This document shows, one piece after another, positions 2,165 through 28,484 of a DNA stretch of 64,000 nt. The notes below the pieces were generated by a model, which had not been told where the DNA came from, did not search any database, and worked only from the letters and a program-made list of their open reading frames with translations. The stretch spans positions 109,348-173,347 of the forward strand of contig NMRA01000521.1 of NCBI GenBank assembly GCA_002633005.1. Direction: 5' to 3'. Both the position numbers and the translations under genes were made by a program. This stretch comes from Phoronis australis. Its lineage: Eukaryota > Animalia > Phoronida. Numbering within the stretch: the first letter of the stretch is position 1; each line of letters begins with the position of its first letter.

Positions 2165-5100
2165 GTTCCCAACCAAGATGGTGAGATTCAACCTGGAGAG
2201 GCCATGTCGAAAAGCCAGCCTGGGTTGTTCTTCTATAAGCCTACCTATGGCAAGTTTATCACTGTTGACTTGCGGGGAGACGCTGTCCCAAGGACTGACT
2301 ACAAGAACCATTTCCTGACGTCTGTAAGTTCAACTGACATCCCTACTCTTAAATCTATTTGACATTATTGTCTCACTGTACCCATTCAGTGAGGAGTAAT
2401 GTTGTCTGTTTAAAGTAACTTGTCTCGACAGATTGTGTACGTATGCTGAAAATACATGCACGAACTGGCTACATCTGCAATTATGCGGTGGGTTCTTTGG
2501 GTACCTACTGAATGAGACAAATCACGAAGTGATACAATGGCCTATTTTTAAAAGAGCACTGTCTGTGTGGTGCGGCAGCATGACGATTAACGTCGCGATT
2601 TCGCCTACCAACACACGTAAGTTATGGCGATTTATAGAAACTGGCATGATATCGATAAACGAACATCCAAACCGTTGCAAATGTTAACAAGATTGAGATA
2701 CGGCACAAACAAAACGGACTTCTACAGAAATCAGGTAGAAATTTCGTCACCTACCTCCCTACATGTACGTCGAACCATTGTCAAAGTTTGAAATTGAAGT
2801 TGTTTGATAACTACTGCACCATATATTTATACAAAACGAGCTATCCGTTTACTATAAGATAGAATATATAGCAAGACCACACCATTCAATCAGTGCCTTC
2901 TGTCATACCCGATCCGCAGAAATTACTTAAGCATTTCAGTTTGTCCATATTTCGACAAGGGCTGAATTTACTTGGATTGGGAATTATTACTACGAAATTG
3001 CTTATACAGGTAATTTTAACCAATTCAAAGGCTCTTGAAAAATGCTTAACGGAAAGTAAAACATATACACAAAGCGTCTTTGAGTATGTCATGGCAGTCA
3101 CTGGTTTCTGTAATACACTGATGACACTAACAATACTTCTTGGTTTGTATACCTGTCCAATACATTTATCTTCTCACAGGTGCAGCAAATGGTGGAATAT
3201 AGCCGAAATTTAGATTCCAAGCAGTCTCGAACTAGAATTCTGGTAGGAGTCAATCCCAAATTGTGGGATGAATGGTAAGGACGGGCATAAGAGAAGATAT
3301 ACATTGCATCACAACAAAACACCCGGAATAAAAGAGCGCCTTTAGGTGGCACTCTAGGCTACATTTCGGTGCAATATATACATGTAATTGTTGTTCTCCG
3401 GACACTATTATTGCTACCGGCTAAGATTCTTCAGTGTTTGAAATAATTATTTTGCGTACGTCAAATTCTAACACTTCAAGGAACAAAACTGTTTACTAAT
3501 CGTTTACACAAACCATTCCATTTCACTCTTACCTGCAGGTATTTGCTATATTTCGACATTGTTATCACTCGGTGATTGTCAATATCGTAAATCGAACTAC
3601 ATGTATATCCATACGCTTCGAAGAGAAAGTGAATAGTTACCTTTTTGGGCTTCGCTGTTAGGTTTCCCAACAAAGACTACAATTTGGAACAACGTCCAGA
3701 AAGTTCGTTTTTAGTCGATGGATCCACAAAGTTCAAGAATGGTGGCAACACCGATTTGTTTCTCTATCTCAAGTCTGACTGTCAAGAAGATCTCGAGAAA
3801 CTATCCAAAATGATGCACGACATATACTTGGGGAAGCTTGAGGAGCTCATCTCATATCATGTAAGATTTTTAACTTTCCTGATGGTCCGTTAAACAATTT
3901 TGACTAAGAAATGCTGTAGAATTACATGTAAGCTTAGCGCAAACTTTTGAGGTCTTGTTCCCCCAACGTTTAAGCGAGCCAAAGCCAAACTGTGGCTAAC
4001 CCGTCCTATTCGATTCACAAATTAATGCTCGTGGCTTAGCCGCGATGATGAAGAAAGTACTCGCTAAGTTCTCTTATAATGCATAGACGGCTACTGTTTA
4101 GTTTTTCATTTTAAAAGCAGTCGTATCATGAATGCCAGATTTACGTTGAAATCTAGACACTGACATCTTTGGAATAACAAAATCGACTAATTTCTGAAAA
4201 CAGGTCATGTCGTCAGTGCCAAAAAAGTCTGGAGTTATCGAAGGTAGGTTTCAAGACGGCTTGGAAAACACATTTGATGTCCAGTCATTGGAGCGGTATA
4301 TACTTACAGGACCTCAAACTCAAGCCGGTCGTAATGGAGCCTTGGGTAAGAAAATGTGTTAGAGTCTCTCAGTTTGGAATATTTATCCACCAAACCTCCG
4401 CATGTTGAGTGATCACGTGCCTGGCATTATTAGGTCTATACCGGGGAAAAAGAAATAAAAAGTCACGTTACATTGCTAAACGCTTCCCGGATCCTGTTTT
4501 TTTTTCATTCATGTAATAAGGGACATTTATACACGTGAAACATTTACAAATCCGGATAATATGGTGTTCGCCGACAACTGTAATTGCACCTCTTGTATGT
4601 TCCTGCGTAGTTGAGACTGACTAGTTGCAGAGGTCGATAAAAATTTTCAAAAGGGTTAGTAATGTATAGCGCTACACAAAACCTGGCCTAATTATTAATG
4701 TGTATGATTTTGTTATTCTAATTTTATTTGACGGGGTCCAAAACATCAAAATAATGTCATAGTAAACAATCCCACACTAGTGATACACTTTTCGTGTATA
4801 TCAGGAGTAGATAACATCGCTGTATTCAATTTCTCTTAGACTTTAATGTTGACGAAATGCCAAGTGTTACCTGAAATAGAACGGTTTCAAAACACTACAT
4901 TGGCCTTTATTTAACCGTGGTGGCATCAGAGCACATGAGTGCAACCAAAATGGGCGCATTTTTCTTAAAACTCTTGACCGTCATTCGCGGAAATTGTACC
5001 CTCCACAAACGTGGCCAAGTTAGACGTGCACGTACTGATATCCGAGAACTTGGCTGTCAAAATTTTTTGTGGAACTCCGGTTCATTTTTTTCTAAAAGCC

Positions 5101-6615
5101 AAGTTCTCGGGGAAAGAACGTGACATAAAACCATGAGTTCACATTTGTACACCAGTAGCTTATATAAGGAGAACGAGTATTTACTATTTTAATTGTCTTA
5201 GGCAGTTATTCTACCATGTGACATCGATCAAAATCGGCAACTGAAAACACCCGAGTACTTAATTCGTCGACCGAAAAACATCCAAGTACTTTATTCGTGC
5301 CCAGTACGCCGCCTAGGGCTGAATTTCTGTGCTCATCCAGGTTTTTCATAAGTGAATTGTAATATTAGTTATTTGAGAAGTGAACTGAATAAACTCGACC
5401 TGCTAGTATCTACCATCAACACGTTATCCAGGAGATTTGACGACTATATACATGTAACATGTGTGGTCAACATGAATTTGACTTCGCACAAGAGTGATCG
5501 GACAAGAACATTACCACACAGTTGTGTTAATGAACACAAAACCTAAGTGCGGGGAATCGCTTTTATCTCTCAGTTCATATAGTTTTGTGTTTTATTCTAG
5601 GAGGTACCTATTGCTTCACGCAGAAGTTTCAGTTCTCCTGGAATCTGCTTAATGGAATGCACATGGGCGAAAAAGAAGACATGATTGGACGAAAAGTTAA
5701 TGGTTGCATTATTCCACTGAATGACGAAAGAAGTCACATTAAAAGAGCACGTGTTTTGAACGAGGAAGGGCAAATTTCCCATAAGGTACTGGAACATAAA
5801 TACTTCGCTCGCGAAAGTTATGACGTTACGCATACGGTTATCTTTTATGATTTTCGTTCGTGTCATCATGACCAAGATTGTTACTATATCATGTAGTCAG
5901 TTTGAAAACATTCTACCATTTGGCCAACTTCTTCTCAATATTCCCATTGGAAGTGTAAAATAAAGAAACTCCTCTCAATAACAACACGGATAAACTTTCG
6001 TCCCAAAGTGTTTCCACGAGTGCTGTATCTGATGTACATAAATCGTCATAACCGTTTATAGTAAGAGTTACGTGTACATGAATATGGTTTTAAAACAAAG
6101 GTACCTGTATTTTTGTGCAGCGAAATGACTATATTGCCCATGTGTTCTAAAAGTCTGTGTAAGAAGCAAGTACGCTGAAGATGACATTGTATCTAAGAAG
6201 AAAACTCGTGCAAATTTATCCTGAAGTACATTCACAGGGATTTAATCAATCCTGAAGTACATTCACAGGGATTTAATCAAGAGCTCAGATTCCAGATTAT
6301 TTCTAAATATTTAGTTGTTTGTACTGTTAGCGAATGCTGAATTTATATCCAATAATAATCATGCATATTTCATTCTTTTGTACATTTAAGCTGTATCGTC
6401 AGTCACTGCCCTACGGGATATCTGAAACTGGGCTTTCCAGAGAAGAGGGGGTATACTTTGTTGCATTTTGCAATACGCTCACAGCTATTCAAGATGTTTT
6501 ACGAAATCTTGCTGGGAGTGACCCAAACTTCACCGAAGACAAACTTATATCTAATGTTGATGGACTGGAAGGAAGCTTCTGGTATATGCCGAGTGCAGAA
6601 GAGCTTGACTCAAAC
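2165..6615 (+). other. DyP-type peroxidase domain (first six confident exons of the fusion gene)
   Basis: SQPGLFFYKPTYGKFITVDL; ILVGVNPKLWDEW; DLFLYLKSD; GRFQDGLEN (GxxDG-like, distal Asp codon 4255-4257); GGTYCFTQKFQFSW; EDMIGRK; SHIKRAR (proximal His 5735-5737); LYRQSLPYG (distal Arg 6397-6399); EEGVYFVAFC; GSFWYMPSAEEL. Confidence 0.88.
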
Positions 6616-9600
6616 GTGAGTAACAGCAAACATGGGATTTTTAGTCAAAACTTCAATGGCAGTTAATAATAATTAACAACCCAAAAGGTAATTCCCCCAC
6701 CTGCTTTCAGTGACGTCACTTGTTGATGTTGGTATAGATTTTCCGGGTGGTCGTAGAAAATCCACTGTTCCCAAATTAGAACATAGACGACATTAATAAA
6801 GAACAAGCTGCTTCTCGTCAAGCTTATGGAAACAGATTGAGTCTATGAAGGGGCTATTTACACGACCGTATGTTATCTGAAACCAGATAATCATAAGTTA
6901 GAAGGTGGTGGCAATTGTTCTTCAAAGAGAGCTTCTTGCATAAGTATTTTAACCCTTATTGTTCCTGCTATATCCGGTAGGAGCCTAGCCGCGCTCAAAT
7001 TATTCGTCTAAGATCTTAAGTCACAATTTACAACCGTGGACAATAACACGATACTCAGTTGTGTTGCTGTGTATGGCTTAGATAACAGATAATTTCTGTG
7101 TTTTACCTCACTTAGGTATTTTCTCATATGTATTTCATCCCGTGATGTTGATATTTAATCAAACAAAACATTACGGAGCAAGATCGCGGAAGTTCGAGTC
7201 GAAGCATCCAGGAATTGGGCACCGCAAAACTTATCTTGAACTTCTCGGAAGCATTCGTGTTTTTGTCCGGGATAAATGAGCTTGTTTCACAAATTAATTG
7301 AAAATTCTGTAAATTAACCACCGTATTTCAAAAATACGTTTACAATGAAATTTGGCGAAAGCGTGCCCCTGAGGAACATATTCAGGGAGTTGTAATTTTA
7401 AAGCCTCATGTGTTAGGTATTTCAGTAGTTATGTCAGTTTGCTATTACTCAGATTTGATTGTATTTGTTCAGGTCGGAATACAAGTACATAATATATGTA
7501 ATTGGTTCATCATGCCGATCAACATCCCACATGGAATTAATTCCGCATTCAAATCAGTTTCAGCCCGATAAGGTTCCCGACCTTGACCTTTTGGATCACT
7601 GGAACGTGAAACCAAAAACCAATCCGTACATGTTTTATAACTCGACGGAGTACATGCACCGTATGAGTACGGGGGCGTATGTTGATCAGGAAGATATTCC
7701 TTCTCCCCGGGTTCTCAAGCTCCTCCATAACACGTTTGCGCAGTGGAGAAATAGGTATGTTCTTGAACAACACATTTATCAGGTTTCATGAAATGAAGTC
7801 AAAGTATTTGTGCTCTACATGAGAAGTATCAGGAGTGCATGTAAGGGTTTCTGTGGTTTGTGGTTTGAAGTCCCATCCAAATAGCTCCCTTTATTCACAG
7901 TTTTCTTATAAAAGCTTACATACATCGTTGAAGCCGTCCTTTCAGAATTTACAAGTTTTTCAATGTCTCGGCATACCCAAATCACACCCCGTCAACACAT
8001 TCTTGGAACCAACTACTACAGTATAGATGTAGCACTAGACTGATTACCAAAGGTGCAGGTCATTGTAAAGCGAAATAGCTAAAGCGTTTTCAGTTAATAG
8101 AAATTAAGCTCAGTGCCCATCTTATCACCCCAGTCATTAAAATTCCAGTTTCACCAAATTTTCGAGCAACCCTTCACTCAGTCTCTACAACTTCTATGGT
8201 CCCCTTTAGTAACAAGATGTGTACCAACTTTCACGTTCCTAATGGTTCTTCAAATAGTATGCCCTGTAATTCATTGCAAGTTTATATAATGATACAATAT
8301 ATTTTACTCATTCAGGTACGCAGTAATCAAATTCGCTCGTTGAGTGTAGCAAACTCTTGAATGTGATTGTATTGATACCGTGATCTGAAGACCAAACAAT
8401 TTCCGAAACTCGAATGGAACAAATTCCATAGCACGCTGTGAGTAAACTTCCGAACCAATCTCGAACAATGCTGCATGAGTGGTTAAATTACCCAATGTTA
8501 GTCCGTGCCTAGTTTGATCCCTTAGAATAGGTCCTGGAATGTGTTGTACTCAAGTTTGTAAATATCAGTACATGTACTTCGCTTTTCCTAATGCAGATGG
8601 TACGTGAAGCCCGTTGTACCAGAGTACAGGCATTTAAAGAATTATGTGCACCGTTTTCTCGATGACCCTGACGACTTCTATCAGCTAAGCGTACCCCGCC
8701 GCAAGGGGTACGCGAATAAGATGACTTTGGGAGTTGCTATCACGGAAGAATACTACGGGAAAAAGGCTGACTTGTTTAGGATTTTCCCGGACGAAATAAT
8801 TGTGGGTGTAATGCCTCATTTTAGTCTGGGTCTTGGAAAGGTACGCGTGCACTTTAAACATTTTGAAGATATATGAGAGTTTTTGTAAATGTTTTGTAGC
8901 ATCTGAGCAATAAAACATTAACTTCTAAGCTGCTATAATATAGCGACAAAAATTATTATGAATTGTCGTTTTTGATTTCCTCGATAAAGATTGCTGAATT
9001 GATAGTACCGACGAACGAAATCAGAGTCTTGTCCATATAGTTTAAATGTCAGTCCTCTTGTATACTCCAAGCAAGATTTAGTTAATGGATTTAAACGTGG
9101 GTGGTGTTTTTTCGCGAAGTTGCTTCATAAAAAATATACGTTATCCAAAAATTAAACCTTTTCAGTTTTCGTTTTAACAAGCACACATACCTACCATACA
9201 ATTGATATGCCATGTGAAGAGCCACAATATTTAGAGACATTGCTACATTACAGGTTGTCATGCCTTATCTGAGCGAGATCGAGACGGAGGAGGCCTTCAG
9301 CGTGTATCTAAGTGAAGCAGGAATGATGGGGCACGTTGTACCAGATCACGGCGAACTTGTCACCAAAGGCATTGGGCAACTGATACAAGAGATTAAGCAG
9401 AATGCTCAAGTCGCAACCCTGGACCAGGATCAGAAAGAGTTTTACAACTCCGCATTGTCTTCCCTAGAAGGTGTTCAGATGTATATGACCAATTTCGCAG
9501 ACTTGGCAATGAAAATCTCTTATGAGGATAACCTTCCCAAGAATCAGGTAGCGGTTGTTGTTTGATCAAAAATTTTATAGTTGGTTCTGGTCTGTACTTA

Positions 9601-12600
9601 ACTTAGTTTGATACCATCGCTCCCTGACTAACACCACGATTTGCCAAGTGACCAGTAAAAACAAATAGCGCATCATTTTGCTAGTCTCGGGTGAAATTTA
9701 ACAATTACTGTAAAGTAAAAAACAAGCCATAGTCAACCGTTTCTTTCGCCTTATTTCTTTTTATACAGTTTGCATATGTAATGACGTCATATGCGCATTT
9801 ACTTGTCGAAGGAAACATGTTAGCATAGTCATGAGATTGTTCCCTGTTTCGTTGCCATTTCGATGTACATGACAGGCACTTTAGCCTACTGAAAACCTAC
9901 CTTATCACGTCCACAGCTACCGCAATTCCTTCCCACACAATCAGCTACTAATCATCGCTCAAACCATTGATTTTTGTGAATAACATAGAGTTATCAATGG
10001 TGAATTTCCGAAAGCACCGGCGACTCTGTACACTGAATGCAGATCTTGAACTCAAAACAAAAAAGGACACAATTCCAAGCACCACACATCACATACACTC
10101 GCCACCAAACCGCAACAATGATACTCCAAGGAATGCTAAAAAATGAACATGGCCATCGCTTACCAGCACTTACTAAAGGCAGCTTAAAGAAGTAGATAAT
10201 TAATTTATATCACTTGCCGCTTGGAATGAGTCATTCTAATTTACGGACATGTATTCCAAATATGCACAGATACACACTAATGTACACAGATGATCACGAA
10301 CCTGCCATCCAATTCAATCATCAAGTATCTTTAATTGCGGTTACATGTACAGTAATGCATGCATATTATATACAGGTACGCTGCATCACGTATAATTCTG
10401 CAAAATTCATTTACTTGGTTATGTGCGCTGCATATGGTCAACTGTTGATGACAGACTTGGTTGGAGTGCTTGTTGGCCATCTGGTTGAGTTTTTAAGAGA
10501 CTCCAAACTCCAAAGACACCTAGCAGCATTCAGTTCAAATTAGCGTCGCATGGCATGTATTGGCGATCATGCTCTTCATGGTAAAAGGGTGCCTTTTCTT
10601 GTCATAGTGTGTTTTAAATTCCTCAGATTTGCATCTAAGTTTTGCTAAAAAATTAACCAACGTATTCGCTATCAATACAACAGCTCAAAACCGTTCATTA
10701 TTTTGTAGGTTGACAGCTTGCGACAAATTCACGAGCGTCTAAACAGGTTGTCGGTGAAGCCTCCTGTTACATTTACTGACGCAGTTCAACTCCTGTTCTC
10801 GTTCCACTGTTGTCTTCATAACATTGGCGAGCCTGTTGCTCTTGGAAGACTTGATCAGATTCTGCTACCATTCCTCGATAAGACTAACCCAGGGGTAAGA
10901 AAATAACTGCCATTATAGAACTCTGGCTGCTGTTAATACCACATACATGTATGAGTATTTGTCAGTTGGTTTAAGTAGAAGGGAAAATACCTTCAAGTGT
11001 CAGTAATGCAGCGTGCTTGAAGATTTCGAGAAATGTAGCAATACGTACACTTGCATTTTCTGAGACTTTATTAAAAAGAATGACTTCCTTTGTATAGGAT
11101 GTACCCCCGCAGGACGTGATCGATGCGTTTTGCTTGAAACTTAGTGAGCGCGTGGAAATGAACAGGCATTTTATCAAAGACCTGGTTTACCCGGGGGTTA
11201 CTGCCGTTTTCTACCAGACTACTGGCAACTTTCCCCAAGGAGGAGGTTAGTTTTCTATACGTTCCTAATATTGAATTTACAATTAAAATATATCTATACG
11301 TTGTATCTGTGCCATCGAGTGACAAGTTTTCGAATTCTATTTTATTTCTTAATAAATTCTGCAAAATGTTGCCCTTTGCATTGAAAATGTTTGGCTATCA
11401 AAAGGTGTTGCATATACAGGCTAAAGTTTTACAAAGTTGCAAACCCTGAAAAACTAATCTTTTGGCTCTCGGATGTTTGTGTTCACAAACAACACTCCAC
11501 AACTCAATATCTCTCCAACAATACGACGCTCGATAGCATTGTGGTTTCCTTACAAGTAGTAACTTGATTAAAATAACTTTGGTTTCGTGAATCGATATAA
11601 TGGGTAATATCTTTACTTAATTGTTTATTCAACAAAATTTGTAAGGACGTGCAAACTTTGGTGGCGCTGCAAAAATGATTGCTGCGCGTTGTTGTTTAGG
11701 ACACGTTTTGTTCTAGCATCAACTGTAACAACGCATATTAAGTGGAGGCGCACGTTTTCGAAACTGCTGAACCACTGTACTTTGGACTCGACAACACAGT
11801 TTCAAGCACAATTGCTATTTCGTGCAAGTTGTGAATAGTTATATAAACGAGTAAAACAACCTCTGCTTTTTATCTTTCGCTCACAAGGTACTTTTCTTTC
11901 ATGTGGTAGGAATCAATCAATGGGTACAACAAGTAACTCTCGGCGGATACAAGGCAACTGACGAAGCAAAGCCGTCTCCGGGAATAAACGACCTAACTTT
12001 AATGTTTCTCAAAGCCACTCGCCGTCTTCCGTTGAACGCACCTTGTTTTTCTCTGCGCCTTTATAAAGGTATCGAGGATACAAAACTGGGGCAGGATATC
12101 GTGAAGGAAACTGCAAAGGCTCTTCTCAGTGGTGGAGCTCATCCAATCATATTCAATGATGACCGGCTCGTGTCTGGCTTGCTGACGAGCGGCGTAAAAC
12201 CCTATCAGGTTAGAAAATGGGCCTTACAAACCGAAATGACGGTCCTCCTAACTATTAATTCCTATAACGAATCTTGTGATAAGTTTGTGCTTGCTTTCAA
12301 CAGCTGGCAGCGCTCATGGACAGGTTAGATGCCATCAATATTTATTTTTGTAACCTACTGTGCATTTTGCCAAATTCGGCTCACAAAAGCCACCTGTAGA
12401 CGCTAAAAAGCTCACTATCCACTACAATTAGACGATGTGAATGCCCTCTCATGGAGTTTCGTTGCCAGTGTTATTCATGTCACTGACTGTACGCGGTTCG
12501 GACTCGAAGAGTCATCCTTCCAGTATGATCACTTACATTAACCTTCCAGACCTTAATGTAAAACGATTCTTATCTGTTTTGCGATATTCACTTAGGTTCC

Positions 12601-15421
12601 GCTGTATGCCGCAAGGGATTACGCTTGTGACGGATGCTATGAACCAATGGTTGCAGGGGCCTCAGAATTTGCCTTCATTACTATTCCTTTACTGAACATA
12701 GTGGAAATGGCTATTAACGAAGGCACTCTGTTCAAGATGGCTGGACCTGTGTTCTTACGCGGGAAGAAATCGTCATACAAAACTAAGCCTCCGGAAGAGA
12801 TACAGGATTTCAAAGAACTAATGTCTATCTTTGGACGACATCTCCATCTCCAAATTGTTAACTCGTGTTTGTTTATGCTTCAGAACTACGGAAACATGTG
12901 GAAGGTACAGGAGATGTTATTTACTTAAGTCGGTTAACTTAATGAGCGAAAATGACAGGAGAGCTTTCAGCTCCAGATACACTTTCAAGCGAACTACAAT
13001 TAGTCTAATAATGTCCACAGCAACAAGCTGACAATGTGTCACGTGACGAAAATGTGAAAAATGTATACCATACCTATATATCTAACCGTATTTAGTTCGA
13101 ATGGCGGTTCCATATATTTAGGATGATTCATTCCAAATAGGTAATTAACAGTTTTTCATGAACGTTATGCCGATTGAAAACAGGATCTTACTTTCTCTTG
13201 GACAGCTGAAATTACACTTGCTCATACTCTGTGAACAATTTCCCATTTCCCTCTCTGCACTTGTGAAGCAAATTGTAAACAGCATTATAAACACACAAAT
13301 TTAAATAGTGGCTATATTTCGAGGTCATGAAAGCATGTGAAGCCATTATTTTAAGTTGTTTTCTTGTAATGTCTTTGAAAGTCCTTTAAAGTGCACACTG
13401 GAAGACCGGAAAGTGTACAGACAGCATGAGCGAGTGTATATCAAGCTATCCAACAGAAAATACAGTTGTGTTTTCAATCATATGTACGTCAAAACCAAAA
13501 TATATTTGTCTGTAAAATAAACAAGAATGTTTAATATCTTTTTCTGGATACACACCTATATTTTTTTCTTTAAAGTGGTGCCCTTCTTCACTTTTGTCAA
13601 CCATCATCAAAGGATGCAAAGAAACTGGAAGAGACTTGTCAAACGGAGGTGCACTTTACCATATTCTGGCCATAATGTTCGTGGGTGCCTCGAACGCTAT
13701 TGATTCTCTGTATCGCATTAAAAAAATGGTTTTTGATCCTTGCACAGCTATTACTGATCTCGTAGACCTCGTTAATTGTCTAAAGGTACGTACTGTTCCG
13801 TGTTGTGTGTAACTGTCGGTTGTCAAATGGGACATATTTGTCGGTGTACTAGCCTATGGCTAATGTTTTCTCGTTGTTTGACCAACCGACTATAAATAAA
13901 ATGACCTGAATTGGTCATAGATGTTTAAATTGTTCGATTTCACGCTGTTGGGGTATACCGGAAAACAACCTTAACAAAGCCCCTTTCCCCAGCACAGACT
14001 AGACGTTCATGTATCATGAATAAAACGCATATTCGGGCTGGGATTAACATTTTTCATCTAAAACGGAAGAAACTTGTTAAGTATTGACTTTTTATTTAGT
14101 TGGAAATACAAGTTAATTAAAACAGAAGTGGGCTATTACGTCCAAGCTAGAACCACAGACGGTTTATTCTTTTTAATGTAAGTAAGAATTTGCGTTAAAT
14201 TATCGAGCATACTCGTAGGTTTCATCCGTCTAGTGATATGCAGAGAAGGCTTTCGTGAGAAAAGATCTTAGCAATGTGTTTGTCGATAAAGTACTACATG
14301 ACTGAATCGTTGGTACATGGGCTGCACAGCACTGAAAAATGTGGGAGTATACCCCTTCCCCCAGCCCCCTATGTTGCGCTACGCACGTGGTACAGTAATT
14401 TTTAACTCTGCCAAAATCCGTTAAACCTAAGTGCATGATATACATGTACGTCTTACTAGAACTATTTAGCAGTTTGGTCAAACACTTGTCGAAATTTGGT
14501 AGTTCTTTTAGACGAAAAACATTCATGCATGCGTTGCTATTCACTGAGTCATCGTTGTCTTGTATAATTCGAACACTATCGTATTTAGTTACACAAGGCT
14601 TCTTCGCAGTGGCTAGCAATCATAGTATTTGGTACTGAAAAGAGAAACATAACGATACATGTGTATGTGTTACCGAAAACAGTGATGAACAATGAGCTGA
14701 GGTGTACGGGGATTTCCGAAGGGTAAGCCAATGTGCCAAAACTTTCAGGCGTCTTAGTAACACCAAAAAGACAACCGTGCGTTTATTCGGGGAAGTCTGA
14801 TGTGTAAACGAAAAGTCATATTTTCTTATTTTTACTGAAAACAGGTTTTTTTTTAATTTTTTGTTAGTTCGTCAACACTTTGTTCGTTTTCACGAAAGAT
14901 AAATGCGCCACAAAATTAAACTTATAACTAAAAGTTGACTCTGAATGAGCTTTTAAGAGGAAGTTTTCCAGATGAGCCCTCCACTTTCTGGACACTTGAT
15001 ACCTGAAGTTGTAACCATCGAATAAAAGCTTATCGGCGTTTATTTGTCATAATTTTTCGAATAAACGCCCATGGGCGTTTCATCGGGTGGAGTTATCCAC
15101 GTAAAAAAGGTTTCGTTTTAAACCTGACAAGTTATCCTTGCATATGTATTTAAGTGTGACTGGGGATACGACATGAAGGAGCCTATGCAAGACATTAGAG
15201 CTGGAACAACAAGGTCTGTGGCCCATGGAGAGAAATACAAGAGATATCGACAAGTGGCCATGTCTTTCCCTAGGTTCGGGGAGGGAGTTGAAGATATCGA
15301 TCAGCTGGGACATGAATTGATGAAGATGGTCTACGACGAAGTGAGAAACGTTGTAAACTGCGCACCAGTCAAGGTAACTCTCACCGAGTCCCGTTTAGAT
15401 CAGTACTAGCTGTATGGATAA

Positions 15422-15486
<65 letters not shown>

Positions 15487-17221
15487 TTCATAATCGATAA
15501 AGTCTAGGAAGTCTGATGCAAAAATACACAGAAACATAGATGGCAAAATCACAAACGCAAGACACTATGTACATGAATGTGCGATGCGCAGCCGTAGGCA
15601 ACGTTTATAACGGGAACAGTGGGTGCGGAATTGTTGTTTGCTAACAATTTGCATTGCTTTCCACTAATCAAATTAAATAAGAACCATTTTCGAGAGTCGG
15701 ACGCGAACTAATTTTGGTCGATTACGTGAGCCGACCTGTCGCGCGGTTGGTGCCTTCACACTTGTTGCACCTCTTGGCTAAGGGCATGAACCTGCACCCT
15801 CTTTTGTTACAGACTCGAATGGAAAAACTGCGGCAAGAGTTCAACCTGTCTGGCTTCATCTTCACCCCTGGTACTGGTACGTTCGAAGGTTACGTAGGTG
15901 CAGGTTTGGACAACGGCGCGTCAGCTGATGGACGTCGAAGTGGTCAGCCGATTTGTTCAGATTTCAGTCCAAGCCCTAATCCACAAGACCTTGCGGCAGC
16001 TCCCATCTCGAGATATATATACAAGTAGGTAAAACCTTCTGACTATTGGCCCGTTACTTTTTGTTCATTTGTTGGTGCCACATGCATTGTAGTCAGTGTG
16101 ACGCATATTTCAAATGACTCGCAATAGATAAAAGGAATAGTGCAACTGTCCTTATACGAAATCTTCCGAAAGAAGTGAACGGCTCGAGAGGGCAATGGCA
16201 AACTTCTGCGAGCATGAACAATATGCGGTTGCAAGGTTGGTCTGTCCGCGCGCAAAGTGATATATATCCGCAAAAGGTGAAAACTGGTTCGGGAGGCGAA
16301 ATATGGGTCCTCACCGATGGAACATCGTGTTCTCCTAAAAATGTACCAAAAAGAATTAGAAATGTTTGAATCTGATTATTCTGCTGTTTTTTCCTCGATT
16401 TTGGCAATACATAAAGGAAGCCTCGTCATCTAACCAACTGCGGAAGGTGTTAAACTGCTTATACATGTACATGGCTTTGCAGTGGCTTAAAAAGCTGGAA
16501 CACTGAAGTGATCAACAGAGGATTCAGCAACGGCGCTCCAGTGGATCTGAACATAACAGAAAGAACCTCTCAAAATTTCCTGGAGACGTTCATAAAGGAC
16601 TTTGCTAATGAAAGAAATGGGATTGGTTCCAACCTGCTCACTCGTAAGTGGGTTGACACTTAAATAGGCCAGAGGCTTTCGCACTGTTCTCTCCTCAATT
16701 ATTTTCGGTCCAAAATGATTTACAACAGCTAATCTGGTAATTTCCCGAAATGGTTTTTAAAGCAAATTAGACCTTACTAATCACCGTGTGAGTTCCTACT
16801 CTTCTCCAGTTAACAAAACATCCGAAGCCAATTGTAGTGATTTCTAGCTACGTAATTGCATTGGCATCTCACTATCTCATTATATTTTATACACTATCAG
16901 AATGCTAACTCACACCCGCCTTACCTTCAGGCTTCTGAAGCTGCACTGTCTTTCATTGTTGCAGTATCCTGTCACGATCCAGATACTCTGACTGCCGCAC
17001 GTGACGACCCTGAACGCTACGAACTCGTTCGCTGCAGACAAGGTGGCTGGACAGAGTACTTCTCAATTATGTTCCCTGAGCATCAAAAGCATCACCAGAG
17101 AAGAATCTACTTCGACGGCATCAAACGGGATGTGGGCAAAAGCAGACACCTACGCACAAAGCTGCAGTACAGAGATGACGGGGAGGACGTGGAAGATGAT
17201 ATAGTGGACGCACTATTCTAA
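2165..17221 (+). CDS. Multi-exon gene encoding a DyP-type heme peroxidase / glycyl radical enzyme (PFL-like superfamily) fusion protein, about 1,250 aa; 5' end uncertain
   Basis: Hand-assembled GT-AG exons with matching phases: 2165-2323, 3180-3274, 3662-3860, 4204-4345, 5601-5785, 6391-6615, 7558-7754 (alternative acceptor 7564), 8597-8840, 9254-9547, 10709-10894, 11098-11245, 11910-12208, 12596-12904, 13576-13785, 15155-15373, 15813-16024, 16483-16643, 16965-17221 (TAA). Total 3741 nt = 1247 codons including stop, with no internal stop seen. DyP motifs in the first six exons, GRE motifs in the rest. Confidence 0.9.
6218..6280. repeat. 31-bp direct tandem duplication in an intron
   Basis: atcctgaagtacattcacagggatttaatca occurs twice in succession (6218, 6249). 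Confidence 0.9.
7558..17221 (+). other. Linker plus glycyl radical enzyme domain (PFL-like barrel and Gly-radical C-terminal domain)
   Basis: IFPDEIIVG; GHVVPDHGELVTKG; FYNSALSSLEGV; PPVTFTDAVQ; LGRLDQILLPF; QVTLGG; NDLTLMFLKA; GGAHPIIFND; Cys loop ARDYACDGCYEP (Cys codon 12635-12637); GCKETGRDLSNGGALY; SNAIDSLYRIKKMVFD; PRFGEG; GASADGRRSGQPICSDFSP; DTLTAARDDPERYELVRCRQGGWTEYF (putative radical Gly 17045-17047). Confidence 0.92.
15424..15483. repeat. (TA)n microsatellite in an intron of the DyP-GRE gene
   Basis: About 30 uninterrupted TA units. Confidence 0.97.
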
Positions 17222-19655: not shown

Positions 19656-20119
19656 CTATTGATTGATCGTGTTACCATCTTTCGCACCATTTGTAGCCGG
19701 TAAGACTTCATTTCCTATGCTATACTGCGTGTCGTTACCTGTTTGGTTCACTTTATGATAGCCGTTGGTTTCATCAGCCAACTTTCCACTTTCTGTTTTG
19801 TCTGTTATGCATGCAGTCTGAAGACTCTTGGAATAAGCTAGTTTTATTGAACTTCCAACCGGACCGCTTAATGTCTTGTTAAGGCTCTGATCTATGTGTG
19901 TAGTGATCTTACTCATCAGCGCTTCTTTGGTTTTACTTCTTTCGTCTAACATCAGTTTTAGATCGCCCATTTCGAGCAACAAAAGGTCCATATCTTTCTC
20001 AAGTCGTATTCGCCTTTTCGTGTGCTGACTATGGTTCAAGATACACAATATCAACAATGCCAATGTCATCATTAAGAGCAGTGCTATGATGATAGCTTCG
20101 GTAATGATGCTCCTTTCAT
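19656..20119 (-). CDS. Terminal exon of a single-pass membrane protein (TM helix plus cytoplasmic tail)
   Basis: ttttcag| acceptor at 20120, phase 1. IITEAIIIALLLMMTLALLILCIL is followed by basic HTKRRIR and about 125 aa of tail to the stop. May be the last exon of the SUEL/kringle gene further right. Confidence 0.65.
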
Positions 20120-22799
20120 CTGAAAATGTAAAAGCATACGTACTATTACTTAACAAAACATCATTTCCATGAACGTACATCCCCTGACCGTGATTTTCCA
20201 TTATAGACAATAGCCCTTTTGAATGACATGTCATTTCAGTTTGTATCAAACTGCAAATTCCCAGCTCAAGATACACCTGTAATTGCATGTTCTTGTCAGC
20301 CAACAAAACACGACATGTAATAAGAGGTTCTTCGGTTTATTTTTTCGGTATTCTGAAGAAAGTAATCTCTGTATATTGGTTAAATCACATTACTCTGCGA
20401 TAGAAACTATAGGTTTGGTTAATATTTTAGAGGAAGAGTTTGTTACTGTTTTCAACGCGGCGTAGGATCATGCTAAAATCAGATTATCTAGAACTTAGCG
20501 AGAGACTCAAAATGTAGTGAATGTCCTATTCCGTTCATTTCTCGGAGTGCTAAATATTGGCCAGTACAAGGATACAGGTTTTGACCCAGGGCACCCGGAA
20601 AGACTGACGTCAATGCATGTATGTGCCGCCATTAGAGAGTTTCCACAGAAACAAGAACGGAGGTAGACACACGATATCTGGAACGTTTACATCGTAATAC
20701 AACTGAAAGTTAATGAAATTCAAACAATGTTCAAACAGCTGTTAAAAGGTCATTCTTGAGACGAGGAGTGAAATTTGGAGTTTTAAATTGTGCACATGCT
20801 TTTGGTTACCTTACAAATATCATTTCTATCTGGCGTGCAAAATTGTATTCTGCATATGATGGGGTTTTGAATCTCACAGTAAACATGCACAGTACACAAA
20901 ATTAATGTTCTAATTAAGAAAAAGGTTTACTTGCATTTGATCTTAATGGTACCACACAACAACCTACAAATTGTGTTATAAAGTAGAAATTTTATTGGAA
21001 TTTGATCATGCAGTGTTGTACCTACCGTGAGTGACACCCGTGACGAAGACTCGTGGTGTCACCCCTCACCCACTCAGCCCCAACTTGGTTTAAGAATTTA
21101 GAAAGTCATATGGCGTGAAACACAAAATGCAAAATTTACTGTGGTTCATAATACAAATGCTGCTGGTACATGTACAAGGCTTTAAAGGCATTGTAACACT
21201 AGACCAAGGCTCACTTGTAAGCCTCTGGACCTAGAGACATAGTGCCCGGTTGCATGAAACAGTACGGTCCCAAAAAGTGTCCCCATTAAGTTCACTAATT
21301 CTTTTGCTATTTTTTCGTTCTTCGCTCACAGATGCAATATTGTTTCGGTTAGTTTACCTTTATTATGAGCTCTTCTTTGTCTAAATGATATTTTCTTATA
21401 AGATAACTAAAAACTGAGACGTTTTTTTTCAATAGTACATGTAATTCAACGTAGAGTTCCCTCTCAATTTGTATGAAAGCCAAACATTGTCTTATCTGAT
21501 TCAATGAATCTCAAACAACATCAGATAGGACAGTGTTTTCCCATTCCCAAAAATACGCAGTAGATTTAGGATTCCATCAGGCTTTTTTCCCAAATAAACG
21601 TACTGGGCGTATCTGCGGAAAATTTTCATTATGGACAGGACTCAACTTTGTTAGGCCATCGTGTGTTAAGGACTCGGTGGCGAACAATTCTAACACCAAC
21701 CCGGGAAAATGGTGTGGAATTTGATGGCCCCTACTTTATGTATTATGCTGTCCAAATGAAATTTTCAGCTGACAGTTATTTTTCTTTGGTCTTTCCACTT
21801 CAAAGTTCCTGATTCATGCGTTTTGTAGATTGCAGTTGCTGCTTCATTTCATGCCATTCTTTTCTCACTTGAATGAATTCAGCTTCAAGGTCGAACACTT
21901 TGCTTCCCATAACCTCCATTGTTTCATTTTTGTTTTATGATGCCAAGCAAATCCTATCTCTCGTTTGTAAACACAGCATAGCTGGGAAAGGTCACTACTG
22001 TCGCCATTTTCAGTAGTGGGGCTGTTGGTGTTGATTTTGCATTCTCCGCCTCTGGTTTCAGACATGTTCGGCTTTCTTGGATGATTGAACTTCAGTATCT
22101 TTCGCAGTTGAATGCTAGAGGCGATAGTTTAAAGAGGAAATTGCGTCGGAATTTTGTTCACACACGTCTCTTTTCTGTCAATAAATTGTTCGCTGTAAAC
22201 GCAACGTTCCTTCTTTGGTTTGAATCGCATTGTTTTCTTTTCCTGGTTGTGAAAGTTAAAATACACTTGGAGATCGCCTAGAGGAGATTGTGCTAAGCGG
22301 AGTCAGCGTTTTTCTTCCGCTTTCCTGGAATGCGTTGCTCGAACCACAACCGATTCCATACATGTTGCTGAATTTATTGCACATAACGTTAACTAGTCGT
22401 GTTGTAAAGTGTCTCATTCTGTTTGCAATACATTGTCCGCAGTGAAAGATATTCTGGGTTGTATGTCAGTTTACCTGAAAACTGCACCATTCACAAGAGT
22501 AACACATTACTGGTACACCTGAGTTTTCCTTACACAACACGACATTTAATTGTCCAGAATTTCCACAGAATAAGAACAAGAAAACCACGAAACCGTTTCA
22601 GGGAAGTCATAAAATAACTAAATTTTGTCGTTTGCACCAACTAGACCGGTATCCCAGAGCTTTTTGAGCCTGAAAATATATTAAGCAATTTTGTTTGGTA
22701 CCACTGTGGTCGATGGGTTTCCTCATGCTTGGAAATGACCGTCTGGCAGGTTCGCTCTGGTAGTTGTGGTCAGAGGAGTCAAGAGAAGATCACTCAAAA

Positions 22800-24029: not shown

Positions 24030-24147
24030 TGTTGAGTAGTTAGTTATGTAACTGTTAGGTGGCGCTAGTGGAGGGAGTTGGAATAAAGATGGCTTCCGTC
24101 TAAGACTGTGTTTATTTTATCACATACAAAATCCGTCAACATCAACT
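24030..24147 (+). repeat. 5' LTR
   Basis: tgttgagtag...catcaact, identical to 28651-28768, contains AATAAA. Confidence 0.95.
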
Positions 24148-24165
24148 TGGTGTCAGGAGTGGGAT
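24148..24165 (+). promoter_or_regulatory. Primer-binding site complementary to the tRNA-Leu 3' end
   Basis: TGGTGTCAGGAGTGGGAT directly after the LTR; reverse complement of ...ATCCCACTCCTGACA-CCA of metazoan tRNA-Leu(CAG) as I recall it. Confidence 0.85.
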
Positions 24166-24173
24166 CGCGAAAA

Positions 24174-27100
24174 ATGTCAAAAACTAAACCACCAAAGCTT
24201 GATCTGCAGGCTTGTGATGACAAGCGAGAGTCAGTTGAATTGTGGTTAGAGGTATTTGGAGATTTTTGCACACTGCAGGGTTGGCGGAAATCTGAGTATG
24301 AAGCAGACGACAGGAGACATTGGAAGCCGGAGTGTTATGCCGAGGAAATTTGCGCATTTCGTCTAGCTCTTCCCATGGAAGTGTTGAAAATATTAAAGAC
24401 TACTCTCGTGCCAGCAATGACTGACACTCCGCCTGAGGACGGGTTTGATGACTTGTATAAAGGTTTTCCGTGGACGTGGCAGTCTATGTTACTAAAGCAG
24501 TACAGTACACAGGACACGGTTCTAGCCAATCGAATGAAATTTTTGGAATTGGGAAAACAAAAAAGTGGAGAATCGATTGCGGACTTTGAGTCGAGAATCA
24601 AACATTTAGGATCAAAATGTAAATACAGCACAATGAAAAACCCGGAGCAAGAGTTGTTACGTGACCGTTTTGTGACTGGTATTTTGGATGATCAGTTGAG
24701 GGCAGAACTTTTAAGGCATGTCAAAGAGGACGGTAGTGTTTTTACTTTAGCCGATGTAGTTAGCAAGGCCAAGGCATACGAGGCCGCGAACACTATAAAT
24801 CAAAAGGTCATGGAATCTCAACGTCTCGAGGAGTCGGTAAACCTTACGACACACAAGTCGCGTGCGCCTGATCGCGAGGAGTCAATTGTGACAAGAAATA
24901 AGTCGCGTGCGCCAAAGCAATACAATATATTTTGCGGTTTCTGTGGAGCGAATGAGAAACATACTCGCGTGAACTGTCCTGCTGCACGGCCTGGAGTTAC
25001 ATGCTTAAAGTGCCATGGACCTAATCATTTTGCTAGAGTCTGTCGAAATACTAGAAGCCAGTACAAAGGTCAAGGACAAGGCGGGTCACACTCAAAGCAA
25101 CTGAATATGGTGGAACATGAACATTTGGGGACTGAACAAACTAATAATGCTGAGTATACTTTAGGTTTAACTCATGATGTGAATTTAGTAGCCAATGATG
25201 TGCCTCACAAATTATTCACTAGTTTGTCAATGTCAGTTGATGGTAAAAAGTTCTCTAAAATACCCTTCCAGCTTGATTCGGCCGCAACTTGCAATACGAT
25301 GCCAGTCGAACTTTTCAAACAATTAGGGGATATTAAGAGCTTAACTCCATCTCAAGCACGCCTTCAATCCTATTCTGGCCACACGGTATTGCCTGTTGGG
25401 AAAGCCACTCTGATTTGTGACACGGGTACTAAATTTGATACTTTTGAGGTTGAGGTTGTATCGTCATCTAAAATGGCATTGCTTGGGAACCAAACTGCTC
25501 TTAAAATGCAGCTGATTGATTATGACAAAACTCGAGTCTATGGCCCCAATTTGAAACAGGAAACACCTGATGTAGGTGTGAACACTGTTCTCACTGATCG
25601 CCCTCTCACAAAAGATTTGCTATTTGATAAATATCCAGATAATTTTCGGGGTTTGGGTGATGTAGGTCAACCTGTAAAATTCACGATGGATCCCTCTGTA
25701 ACCCCAGTTCATGCACCCATTCACCGATTACCAGTTGCAAAACGTGAAAGGGTGAAAGCTAAATTAAATGAGATGGTTGCATCTGGCAAACTTGTTAAGG
25801 TCGATGAGCCAACTGATTGGTGCTCTAACATGCACGTTGTAGAGAAGCGCACCGAGTCAGGTGATGTTAAAACAAGATTGTGTCTGGATCCTAGTCAAAC
25901 AATCAATAAGGCTATTGTCATACCCAAGTATACGATTCCAACTATTCATGAGTTACTACCACGCTTATCTCCTAAAGCATACAAGTGTTTTACTATTGTC
26001 GATGCCTTGGATGGTTTTACCCAAGTGCGCCTTGATGACGAGTCAAGCCTGACCACCACAATGCAAACGCCTTGGGGTAGATACAGATGGCTTAGGTTAC
26101 CTTATGGTGCATCTTCTGCCCCGGAGGAATTCCAGAAACGCATCCATGAAGCATTAGATGGTTTACCGGGTGTTGTAAGCATTGCTGATGATATTTTGAT
26201 CTTTGGTCTTGGAGACAGTCCAGCGGAGGCTGAACGTGATCATGACGCAAATGTTGTGAGACTCATGGAAAGAGCCCAGAGCAGATGTTTAAAACTAAAT
26301 CCAAATAAAGTTCAATTTAAACTCAAGTCTATCAATTTCATGGGCCATCAAATTACTGAGTCTGGTGTTAAGGCTGATCCTAACAAGGTTAAAGCCATAA
26401 ATGACATGCCTGCCCCCACTGAAAAAAAGGGTGTAGAACGATTTCTAGGGATGGTCAACTATCTTGGTAGTTTTTGCCCAAACTTGTCATCTGTTGTCAA
26501 GCCACTGTACGATTTGACTAGGAGAGATTCCATGTTTGTTTGGTCTAAGGTTGCACAACAAGCATTTCAAAAAACTAAAAAGATGATCACGAATGCCCCT
26601 TGTTTGGCTTATTTTGATTACACTAAACCGATTGTCCTTCAGGTGGATGCTTCAGACTCTGGTTTAGGTGGTGCCCTCCTTCAGCCTGCGACTTGTGGTA
26701 AGTTGCAGCCTGTTGCGTTTGTCTCGTGCACTTTGCGCCCCAATGAACTAATGTGGGCCCAAATTGAAAAGGAAGCACTTGCAATTTGTTCTGCTTGTGA
26801 GAAATGGGACCTTTGGATATACGGGAAACAAGTAACTGTACACACGGATCACCAGCCCCTAGAAACAATATTTAAGAAGCCCCTTGCGAAAGCCCCCCGT
26901 AGGTTGCAAAAAATAATGTTGCGATTGCAGAGATACAATCTGACAGTGATTTATAAGAAAGGTACTTCACTACTTATTGCGGATACTTTGTCTAGAGCCC
27001 CTCTTCTAGCTCTTAACGAGGCTAAGCCTAACAGTTTTGAACTATTTCGAGTAGATAAAGTTCTTTGTGACTCTGAACATAATCCCCAGCTGTCATCGAG

Positions 27101-28484
27101 TACCATGAAAGAGTTACAACAAAGAACAGCCTCTGATTCCTTGCTGACAGAATTGTGTTCTGTTATTCAACATGGTTGGCCAAATTCTAAATCAAAACTA
27201 CCCATGCAACTTGCTCCTTTTTGGTCAATAAGAGACGAGATGTCTGTCCAGGACGGTATAGTTTATCGGGGCTTACAGGCTGTTGTACCTGCTTCGCTTC
27301 GGCGGGACATGCTGAAGCGTATACATTCCTCTCATGCTGGTGCTGAAAGTTGCATAAGGTTGTGCAAGGATATTATTTACTGGCCGGGTATGAGGGCTGA
27401 TATCACAGATTATTGTTCTGCTTGTGGTAAATGTGCACAATTTGCTTCAGAGAACCCAAAGCAGCCTATGTTGACACAACCGATACCACAGTATCCATGG
27501 CAATTCGTTAGCCAAGATTTATGTGAGTACAACTCGAAAGCGTACCTAGTAACGGTTGACCATTTTTCTGATTTTATTGAAATTGACCTGTTGCCAAATA
27601 CATTGTCTATGACAGTAATTGAAAAAACGAAGGCTCACTTTGCACGTCACGGGATACCCGAAGTACTATTGACTGACAATGCGCCACAGTATATCAGTCG
27701 TGAATTTTCGTCGTTTTGCTCAATGTATTCCATTGAACATAAAACTTCGTCTCCCTACTGGCCCCAGGGTAATGGAAAAGCGGAGTCGGCAGTGAAGGTG
27801 TTTAAATCCCTTGTTAAAAAATGTGATGATGTCACTTTAGGGTTGTTGTACTATCGTAATACTCCTCAGCAGGGTCACACGTTGAGTCCAGCACAGCGGT
27901 GTATGGGTCGCCGAACGAGAAGTACTCTTCCGACTCCTAGGTCACTGTTAACTCCAGCGTATTCTCCGTTAGTTTCGTCTGAGATTGAGCAGAAACGGCA
28001 AAGGGCTGCGTTAAACTATAATAAGGATATCAGATGTGATGTACCTGATATACGTTCAGGTGATTTTGTTTATGTTAAACCTTCTCCGCATAATAAATCT
28101 GGTCCCTGGGCTTATGGGCAGGTTGCAGGTAATGATTCTCCGCGTTCATATGTTGTTAACACACCTCGCGGCCAGGTTCGTAGAAATAGAGCCCAAGTGA
28201 GACTTGCTGCGCCTCCATCAAATCCTGTAGTTCAGGGATACCAAGACTCTGAGTTTGAGAGCATGCACAAGCAGGTGTATAACCCACCCCTGCTTCCGGT
28301 GGTGACACCTATGCCTATTAATATTCAAAATAATTTGCCTACGGTGGCGTCAGACCTCTCTAAGAATCATTCTACCAACGAAAATGGCCCACCAACACCA
28401 CCCATCGTTGCAAGTAGTGATAGGTCCTATTATGTCACCCGTTCCGGCCGTCAAGTGAAAACTCCTAAACGGTTTCTAGAATAA
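24174..28484 (+). CDS. Gag-Pol polyprotein (Gag with two Zn knuckles, protease, RT, RNase H, integrase), about 1436 aa
   Basis: ATG 24174 after the PBS; LRDRFVTGI; CGFCG..H....C and CLKCHGPNHFARVC; protease QLDSAATCN; RT RLPYGASSAPEEFQ, IADDILIFG; RNase H VDASDSGLG, TDHQPL; integrase HSSHAG..CGKC, TDNAPQY, GKAESAVK; C-terminal TRSGRQVKTPKRF. Confidence 0.96.
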   Translation: MSKTKPPKLDLQACDDKRESVELWLEVFGDFCTLQGWRKSEYEADDRRHWKPECYAEEICAFRLALPMEVLKILKTTLVPAMTDTPPEDGFDDLYKGFPWTWQSMLLKQYSTQDTVLANRMKFLELGKQKSGESIADFESRIKHLGSKCKYSTMKNPEQELLRDRFVTGILDDQLRAELLRHVKEDGSVFTLADVVSKAKAYEAANTINQKVMESQRLEESVNLTTHKSRAPDREESIVTRNKSRAPKQYNIFCGFCGANEKHTRVNCPAARPGVTCLKCHGPNHFARVCRNTRSQYKGQGQGGSHSKQLNMVEHEHLGTEQTNNAEYTLGLTHDVNLVANDVPHKLFTSLSMSVDGKKFSKIPFQLDSAATCNTMPVELFKQLGDIKSLTPSQARLQSYSGHTVLPVGKATLICDTGTKFDTFEVEVVSSSKMALLGNQTALKMQLIDYDKTRVYGPNLKQETPDVGVNTVLTDRPLTKDLLFDKYPDNFRGLGDVGQPVKFTMDPSVTPVHAPIHRLPVAKRERVKAKLNEMVASGKLVKVDEPTDWCSNMHVVEKRTESGDVKTRLCLDPSQTINKAIVIPKYTIPTIHELLPRLSPKAYKCFTIVDALDGFTQVRLDDESSLTTTMQTPWGRYRWLRLPYGASSAPEEFQKRIHEALDGLPGVVSIADDILIFGLGDSPAEAERDHDANVVRLMERAQSRCLKLNPNKVQFKLKSINFMGHQITESGVKADPNKVKAINDMPAPTEKKGVERFLGMVNYLGSFCPNLSSVVKPLYDLTRRDSMFVWSKVAQQAFQKTKKMITNAPCLAYFDYTKPIVLQVDASDSGLGGALLQPATCGKLQPVAFVSCTLRPNELMWAQIEKEALAICSACEKWDLWIYGKQVTVHTDHQPLETIFKKPLAKAPRRLQKIMLRLQRYNLTVIYKKGTSLLIADTLSRAPLLALNEAKPNSFELFRVDKVLCDSEHNPQLSSSTMKELQQRTASDSLLTELCSVIQHGWPNSKSKLPMQLAPFWSIRDEMSVQDGIVYRGLQAVVPASLRRDMLKRIHSSHAGAESCIRLCKDIIYWPGMRADITDYCSACGKCAQFASENPKQPMLTQPIPQYPWQFVSQDLCEYNSKAYLVTVDHFSDFIEIDLLPNTLSMTVIEKTKAHFARHGIPEVLLTDNAPQYISREFSSFCSMYSIEHKTSSPYWPQGNGKAESAVKVFKSLVKKCDDVTLGLLYYRNTPQQGHTLSPAQRCMGRRTRSTLPTPRSLLTPAYSPLVSSEIEQKRQRAALNYNKDIRCDVPDIRSGDFVYVKPSPHNKSGPWAYGQVAGNDSPRSYVVNTPRGQVRRNRAQVRLAAPPSNPVVQGYQDSEFESMHKQVYNPPLLPVVTPMPINIQNNLPTVASDLSKNHSTNENGPPTPPIVASSDRSYYVTRSGRQVKTPKRFLE

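Follow-up and report, generated by a model that had tools for sequence, protein, structure and literature searches.

A G-G-W glycyl-radical loop, probably inherited from activase-paired enzymes, in an expressed peroxidase-GRE fusion gene of Phoronis australis

The stretch of DNA analysed here, which we refer to as the window, is 64 kb (64,000 nucleotides) long, comes from Phoronis australis and carries a predicted gene in which a DyP heme peroxidase is fused to a glycyl radical enzyme (GRE). The gene lies at 2165..17221 on the plus strand and is predicted to have 18 coding exons encoding 1231 amino acids from an ATG at 2204, which is an assumed start, as an upstream exon is possible. Exons 1 to 6 are at 2165-2323, 3180-3274, 3662-3860, 4204-4345, 5601-5785 and 6391-6615, exons 7 to 12 at 7564-7754, 8597-8840, 9254-9547, 10709-10894, 11098-11245 and 11910-12208, and exons 13 to 18 at 12596-12904, 13576-13785, 15155-15373, 15813-16024, 16483-16643 and 16965-17221 (all +). 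All 17 predicted introns are GT-AG, the exons join into a single open frame, and exon homology backs the 18-exon prediction. The predicted protein is 46.6% identical, over 1205 columns, to its best homologue in amphioxus (Branchiostoma), and trees join it to amphioxus and crustacean proteins (SH-aLRT 99) and to a protein whose cluster includes a Hydractinia entry (SH-aLRT 97). The window itself looks eukaryotic, with 39.6% GC, introns and a retrotransposon-type ORF. Elsewhere in it, an unbroken ORF of 1458 aa at 24108-28484 (+) reads, from its motifs, like what we take to be a Ty3/gypsy-type retrotransposon polyprotein, and a 164-aa frame at 50105-50596 (+) is presumably, again from its motif, a LINE ORF2 fragment. 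Two frames of about 200 aa, at 19656-20336 (-) and 42259-42864 (-), each have a hydrophobic membrane-like stretch and are probably exons of other genes, and a (TA)n microsatellite lies at about 15423-15482, in the intron after exon 15.

Expression was followed in three raw-read RNA runs with the same species label; a fourth RNA run of that species, consisting of contigs, gave no match to the gene. Stranded reads cover the last three exons and leave the introns between them uncovered, so both final introns are spliced in RNA, while the splices of exons 1-15, including that from DyP to GRE, are predicted. The joint 16643>16965 opens the last exon (16965..17221, +), which carries the glycyl-radical loop and of which 16965 is the first base; it is crossed by 1 read of X1 and 9 of X2, and in a second variant by 25, 27 and 2 reads. 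A longer 'ORF' from 16856 was rejected as coding, since it runs across the intron that ends at this GT..AG joint. Most reads over 15813-17221 come from the second variant, an expressed copy that shares the splice points and is about 90-95% identical; it is either a paralogue located beyond the window or a diverged allele. Among 40 differences listed between the two (10 more exist), 27 codons are silent against 9 that are non-silent, and the three differences that fall within the loop are all silent.

The DyP domain is encoded by exons 1-6 (2204..6615, +; about residues 1-320), with PF20628 over its cut-off on exon 6 and all six exon frames matching the family DyP profile. The residues that define a DyP, namely a distal Asp (GxxDG), a distal Arg and a proximal His, are all present: Asp156 in GRFQDG (4255..4257, +; Asp in 79, Glu in 26 and His in 1 of 106 family rows), Arg250 (6397..6399, +; Arg in 105/106) and the proximal heme ligand His231 (5735..5737, +; His in 106/106). 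The PFL2-type GRE barrel follows in exons 7-18 (7564..17221, +), with PF02901 on exons 9, 10, 12, 13, 14 and 15. Its Cys loop C-D-G-C-Y-E (12626..12643, +) provides the catalytic-position Cys790 (12635-12637) and Glu792 of the CxE motif, and Cys is found at position 790 in 105/105 homologues. Near the start of the barrel, Trp383 (7744..7746, +) is invariant in 106/106 fused and 36/36 unfused DyP-linked members; it is unaligned in the activase-paired group described below, to which the N-terminal alignment is weak.

The fold evidence from modelling comes from a fused homologue, P0062. The two-domain AF2 model of P0062 (pLDDT 94, pTM 0.94) contains a DyP and a complete GRE barrel: residues 11-312 superimpose on DtpB (Z 31.8, rmsd 2.4), giving a DyP fold, and the model superimposes on 9rco (Z 34.9, rmsd 2.8, 715 aligned), giving a 10-stranded barrel. 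Against glycerol and propanediol dehydratases as a group, the AF2 model of a fungal homologue gives Z 34.7-34.9 and rmsd 2.7-2.9 over 713-716 residues. The family resembles the PFL2-type GRE 1,2-eliminases (B12-independent glycerol dehydratase, 1r8w; propanediol dehydratase, 5i2a and 9rco; choline TMA-lyase CutC, 5fau) in its 10-stranded barrel, CxE Cys loop and C-terminal Gly loop in register. However, it is only 19-26% identical to them, has RxGGW in place of RV[AS]GY, has a peroxidase partner, no cognate activase found and mostly aerobic hosts. Pyruvate formate-lyase proper was rejected, as the window has C-D-G-C-Y-E and RQGGW and not adjacent Cys-Cys and RVSGY; TIGR01255 gave no match for homologues P0062 and P0069, and the family misses all NCBIfam equivalog cut-offs.

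With a DyP followed by a PFL-like domain in one predicted chain, the window protein belongs to DyP subclass P2, the DyP B-PFL fusion already in print (Yoshida and Sugano, 2022, PMC9719856; Chaetomium dyprx, PMC5041501). It shares with that subclass an N-terminal class-P-type DyP joined to a PFL-like domain with the heme residues kept, and is 41-47% identical to bacterial and animal P2 members among its 25 best matches. Fifteen fused DyPs, fungal ones included, form one group (support 100/99) against a reference set that differs from the subclass authors' own. What sets the window gene apart from those in print is that it is expressed, that its model contains 17 introns, and that its product falls among amphioxus, crustacean and hydrozoan-cluster proteins (SH-aLRT 97-99). 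The texts of the two papers discuss fungi and bacteria, assume an activase, give no biochemistry and leave the Gly loop out of their discussion (PMC9719856; PMC5041501). A literature search, to which subscription journals were mostly outside scope, found no paper on the loop of the fusion, its activation, its operon form or its animal members, although figures or supplements of PMC9719856 and PMC5041501 may list the last of these. New here are an animal-type gene that is expressed and the evolutionary sequence set out below.

On the plus strand this site of the last exon reads DTLTAARDDPERYELVRCRQGGWTEYF. The Gly loop R-C-R-Q-G-G-W lies at 17030..17050 (+), as placed by sequence, gene model, profile-to-structure alignment and family alignment, with codons for Arg (17030-32), Cys (17033-35), Arg (17036-38), Gln (17039-41), Gly (17042-44), the radical-position Gly1174 (17045-17047) and Trp1175 (17048-17050). 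In a profile search the loop frame matches the family profile at E 2e-23, so the loop is not a chance occurrence, and since RmGGW aligns onto RVAGY of the solved GREs 5i2a and 9f3w, the register is right. The first-pass annotation of this DNA had read the same peptide at the same codons and had assigned the radical Gly as we do, and in these respects it was borne out: RCRQGGW is the true glycyl-radical loop position of a spliced, expressed DyP-GRE fusion gene. The consensus it had quoted as established, with Ser or Ala before the radical Gly and Tyr after it, was too narrow, as the published fingerprint RVxG[FWY] permits Trp and leaves x free (PMC13450708; PMC11528403). Against the fingerprint as worded there, the sole real departure of the window loop is Gln for Val at position -2. 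The longer form RVxG[FWY]x6-8[FL]x4Qx2[IV]x2R is broken twice in the window, where V is Gln and [IV] is His, with R, G, W, Q and the final R retained; the fingerprint Val is also missing in activase-paired relatives.

Across the family, R[MQTV]GGW is found in 121/122 fusion-family proteins, the exception stopping before the loop. The radical-position Gly, whose conservation among fusion homologues the annotation had staked its reading on, is kept in 106/106 fused and 36/36 unfused members, and Trp follows it in 142/142 DyP-linked rows. Position -2 is Met in 72, Gln in 17 and Thr in 16 of the 106 fused rows. The Cys before the Arg, which had also been taken as a meaningful change, is a rare variant (2/106, with Val in 96/106). 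As a control we used 114 ordinary Gly loops, of which 110 came from 101 sampled Desulfobacterota genomes and 4 from carrier genomes, so that one phylum plus 4 loci is represented: RxGGW occurs in 0/114, Trp at +1 in none and Gly at -1 in 6, and position -2 is always Val, Ile or Thr. A further position, Gly+3, distinguishes members of the main DyP-linked clade from RMGGW enzymes that are paired with an activase; it is Glu1177 in the window (17054..17056, +) and Glu in 106/106 fused and 36/36 unfused members, as against Ala in 120/120 listed RMGGW-clade homologues, the contrast resting on these 120 because the DNA pattern used for metagenomes itself forced Ala or Gly at +3. Asn or Asp stands here in a few divergent fusions, and the third DyP fusion described below has Ser. 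Some relatives in the GGW lineage fall outside the published fingerprint at +1, namely P0273 (RLGGL), P0286 (RVGGS), P0288 (RMGGL), P0302 (RVGGD) and P0313 (RLGGS).

The scan for the family yielded 181 loci, of which the best 80 by rank against an unfused query were examined, 44 of them fused and 36 unfused. The unfused enzymes have RMGGW[TS]E in 36/36 cases, and the next gene is a DyP at 35/35 unfused loci with readable downstream DNA. The expectation that RxGGW tracks with the DyP fusion held in one sense, a DyP being present at every readable family locus, and failed in another, as the 36 unfused members and the activase-paired clade also carry G-G-W; RxGGW does not mark the fusion as such. 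Operon and fused DyPs are 23-30% identical, both with the proximal His and the distal Asp and Arg, and a single clade of the two is rejected (AU p 0.008; 11 free DyPs served as the reference). Another one-clade test, whose constraint put rows without known context outside the group, was left out of account. When all cluster representatives were searched with a profile, a third DyP type emerged, fused to a sister-clade GRE (P0272, P0281; loop xCRVGGWNS). The GRE lineage thus has two, and probably three, different DyP partners, which could reflect a single pairing followed by replacements. The GRE-linked DyP is the only DyP of the genome in 22/30 genomes.

Several features of these loci are recorded for their own sake. 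The operon DyPs of L001-L036 form a distinct clade (100/100) directly after the unfused GRE, and those of L018, L019, L021, L022, L024, L027 and L028 have a C-terminal extension of about 200 aa; a Hymenobacter plasmid (L349) has a split copy with DyP, PLD, HAD and VOC genes. Other eukaryote fusions among P0258, P0261, P0262 and P0265 comprise a gene model from a mussel, a C2-domain protein of a choanoflagellate, which falls outside the animal-copy group, and proteins of two anaerobic amoebae with the loop RLRHGGWSDYY. Bacterial neighbours among the best 80 of 181 loci include a phospholipase D-like protein at 25/80 (10/10 scanned match PLDc_2) and a phosphoesterase at 15/80 (9/9 scanned match PF04185), with HAD-like, glyoxalase, nuclease, trypsin/EAD1 and deaminase genes besides. 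At L001, L002, L003, L021 and L036 the neighbours are of conflict or defence-island type (trypsin-PLD fusions, EAD1-trypsin, a non-specific endonuclease), among them an ATPase resembling PtuA (639 bits); neither the GRE nor the DyP was matched by PADLOC.

No activase-profile match was found at any of these 80 family loci (best 80 of 181), 60 of which are at least 15 kb long, or in the 64 kb window, which is the whole of the host sequence scanned. Among 50 carrier genomes, many of them incomplete MAGs, 47 are without a strong match to TIGR02494 and 33 without any at 1e-5; matches above 120 bits occur in 3/50 and represent four genes, each adjoining an ordinary RV[AS]GY GRE. In five further genomes a true activase was found in one, beside another GRE. 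Neither NrdG nor the AmmeMemo radical SAM can be a general stand-in, NrdG passing its cut-off in 0/50 carrier genomes and AmmeMemo, which accounts for most of the weak matches, occurring in 12/50; a radical SAM near L033 was also rejected, being of the SPASM peptide maturase type. Anaerobes among the carriers include a Desulfobacca MAG, with an activase elsewhere in the genome, and proteins of Pelomyxa and Mastigamoeba.

The loop itself tells a different story when its relatives are considered. A metagenome scan for Gly-Trp loops, with the pattern forcing Ala or Gly at +3 and covering 80 of at least 120 stretches, yielded 62 loci with R[VI]WGW and 18 with RVRMGGW, the same core as in the fusion family. 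An activase adjoins 14/18 RVRMGGW loci, the other four being three short contigs and one 9-kb locus, and a DyP is found at 0/18; the activases scanned all pass the TIGR02494 cut-off (6/6, 296-322 bits vs 174). The R[VI]WGW loci have an activase in 38/62, and in 17/21 of those of 8 kb or more, with DyP in 0/62. This R[VI]WGW family (L195-L274) is large, with Trp either side of the radical Gly and an adjacent activase, and we know of no function for it. The RMGGW clade comprises 678 proteins at E 1e-60 or better, with LRVRMGGWCAYF in 120/120 of its listed best homologues, and shares the DGC[W/Y]E Cys loop with the window family. These uncharacterised anaerobe GREs (RMGGW, RVGGW, RVWGW) are the nearest tree relatives of the window family and resemble it in their G-G-W or G-W loop, but they differ in having an adjacent activase, no DyP and sugar-catabolic neighbours. 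The nearest sister-clade member, G333, represented by one locus, has RVGGW, an adjoining activase and a genome without DyP; the residue at +1 varies in the sister clade (W, F, S), and the search for loci of this clade gave 1 in 401 Bacteroidota genomes, with 122 genomes of the same family adding none, and 0 in 401 Desulfobacterota.

In quick trees rooted on PFL and assessed by SH-aLRT only, the DyP-linked clade (SH-aLRT 100) is nested in the GGW group (99-100), RVWGW branches off further out (98-99), and the branch leading into the DyP-linked clade is long (0.47-0.82). The order suggested starts with Trp at +1, after which G-G-W arose and the Val was lost, an activase being present at both stages; the DyP-linked clade came last. 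Together with the activase-paired RVRMGGW enzymes, this order indicates that the loop changes preceded the DyP pairing and that, as far as sequence comparison can tell, the loop was passed down from GREs whose genes still have a radical-SAM activase next to them. According to a recent review, the Gly-loop sequence governs activase specificity (PMC13450708 section 2.5), which predicts a different cognate activase, and that is what the G-G-W relatives have. As activase-paired enzymes have the same loop, the loop alone cannot discriminate between activation routes; Trp after Gly does not mark activase independence, as RVWGW and RVRMGGW enzymes have it with an activase, and Glu1177, Trp383 and His231 would be better targets than Trp1175 alone for telling the routes apart. 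The proposal of the first-pass annotation that the loop was remodelled for a new route does not hold up, because RxGGW is carried by a large group of activase-paired GREs (14/18 loci, a 678-protein clade), so that the finding it had named as contrary largely applies, although RxGGW is seen in none of the 114 ordinary loops. Its wider idea of a different activation route is plausible for the branch on gene content, without the loop having been rebuilt for that route; the activase-free idea for the DyP-linked branch still stands on gene content and DyP pairing, not on the loop.

We lean, by a modest measure, towards a reading in which the loop is inherited and the radical chemistry of the activase-free branch is set off by an oxidising equivalent from the heme peroxidase. 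In such a mechanism the DyP heme would be oxidised by H2O2 to compound I, the resulting hole would travel via conserved aromatics, with Trp383 and Trp1175 as candidates, to the buried Cys790/Gly1174, and the Cys radical would drive a CxE-type 1,2-elimination on a small hydroxylated substrate. The CxE motif and the fold point to 1,2-elimination, and the recurrent bacterial neighbours weakly hint at phospholipid head groups, one of which might be the substrate, or at a role in stress or conflict. G-G-W would be at most a precondition for the peroxidase pairing, not a product of it. Peroxide-driven activation is modelled here on the relay of class Ia ribonucleotide reductase, in which Y730/Y731 sit where the Gly loop lies. 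By analogy only, that enzyme has an oxidant in a partner domain that makes a barrel Cys radical via aromatics, and it offers a precedent for a relay that runs over a long distance through aromatic residues to a Cys in a 10-stranded barrel (PMC11067019); it differs in its di-iron/tyrosyl source, which is not heme, and there is no sequence membership. Against the peroxide reading, the loop is unchanged from the activase-paired form, so that an activase could still act on it, there are anaerobes among the carriers, and the +1 residue is variable in the sister clade. Oxidising Cys or Gly from a Trp radical is also uphill. The radical Gly lies about 20 A below the surface in the GREs covered by the review, according to which O2 destroys the stored Gly radical (PMC13450708).

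A second explanation, which we regard as unlikely, is that the barrel works without a Gly radical, binding substrate or sensing oxidation via Cys790 while the heme domain does the chemistry and the loop serves for packing. It may be consistent with the absence of an activase, the long branch into the clade and the behaviour of PF01228, on which the Gly-radical domain of the family scores at most 31 bits or gives no match, the window exon giving none; however, the Cys, the CxE Glu, both Gly and the loop Arg are essentially invariant across bacteria, fungi and animals, and the full GRE fold is retained. It is improbable, in our view, that the DyP only protects from H2O2, with the Gly radical put in place by a radical-SAM activase from another part of the genome, as PMC9719856 proposes; a putative activase is also named in PMC5041501. 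The identity of the loop with the activase-paired form, the activases in 3/50 carrier genomes and in G051 and the induction of the Chaetomium gene by peroxides (PMC5041501) would fit such a role, but the genome counts given above (47 of 50 without a strong activase match, 33 without any) speak against it, the existing activases adjoin their own ordinary GREs, the weak matches are mostly AmmeMemo, and a peroxidase does not remove O2, the cleaver of the Gly radical. That replacement of the activase caused the loop to be rebuilt as RxGGW, and its Trp to be newly recruited as a redox relay, is very improbable: RxGGW in 121/122 family proteins, the invariant Trp and the loop-dependent specificity of activases would agree with it, but its timing is largely refuted by the trees and by the RVRMGGW and RVWGW enzymes that keep an activase.

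The feature is therefore real, the loop-specific inference fails, and the surrounding system remains worth testing, with the activase-paired RVRMGGW enzymes as a natural control for the role of the loop. More tentatively, and as a possibility that may well prove wrong, animals (amphioxus, crustaceans, a hydrozoan, a mussel and this organism) may express a GRE-fold enzyme switched on by its own heme and H2O2, without SAM or an iron-sulfur activase; the anaerobe-evolved G-G-W would then be a pre-adaptation for up to three peroxidase pairings, and Trp1175 the last relay to the catalytic Cys. According to a 2026 review, in the main text of which neither 'peroxidase' nor 'DyP' appears, all characterised GREs are strictly anaerobic and radical-SAM activated (PMC13450708). 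A heme- and peroxide-activated GRE-fold enzyme expressed in an animal would, if true, break both rules, and would represent an air-tolerant way to run GRE chemistry.
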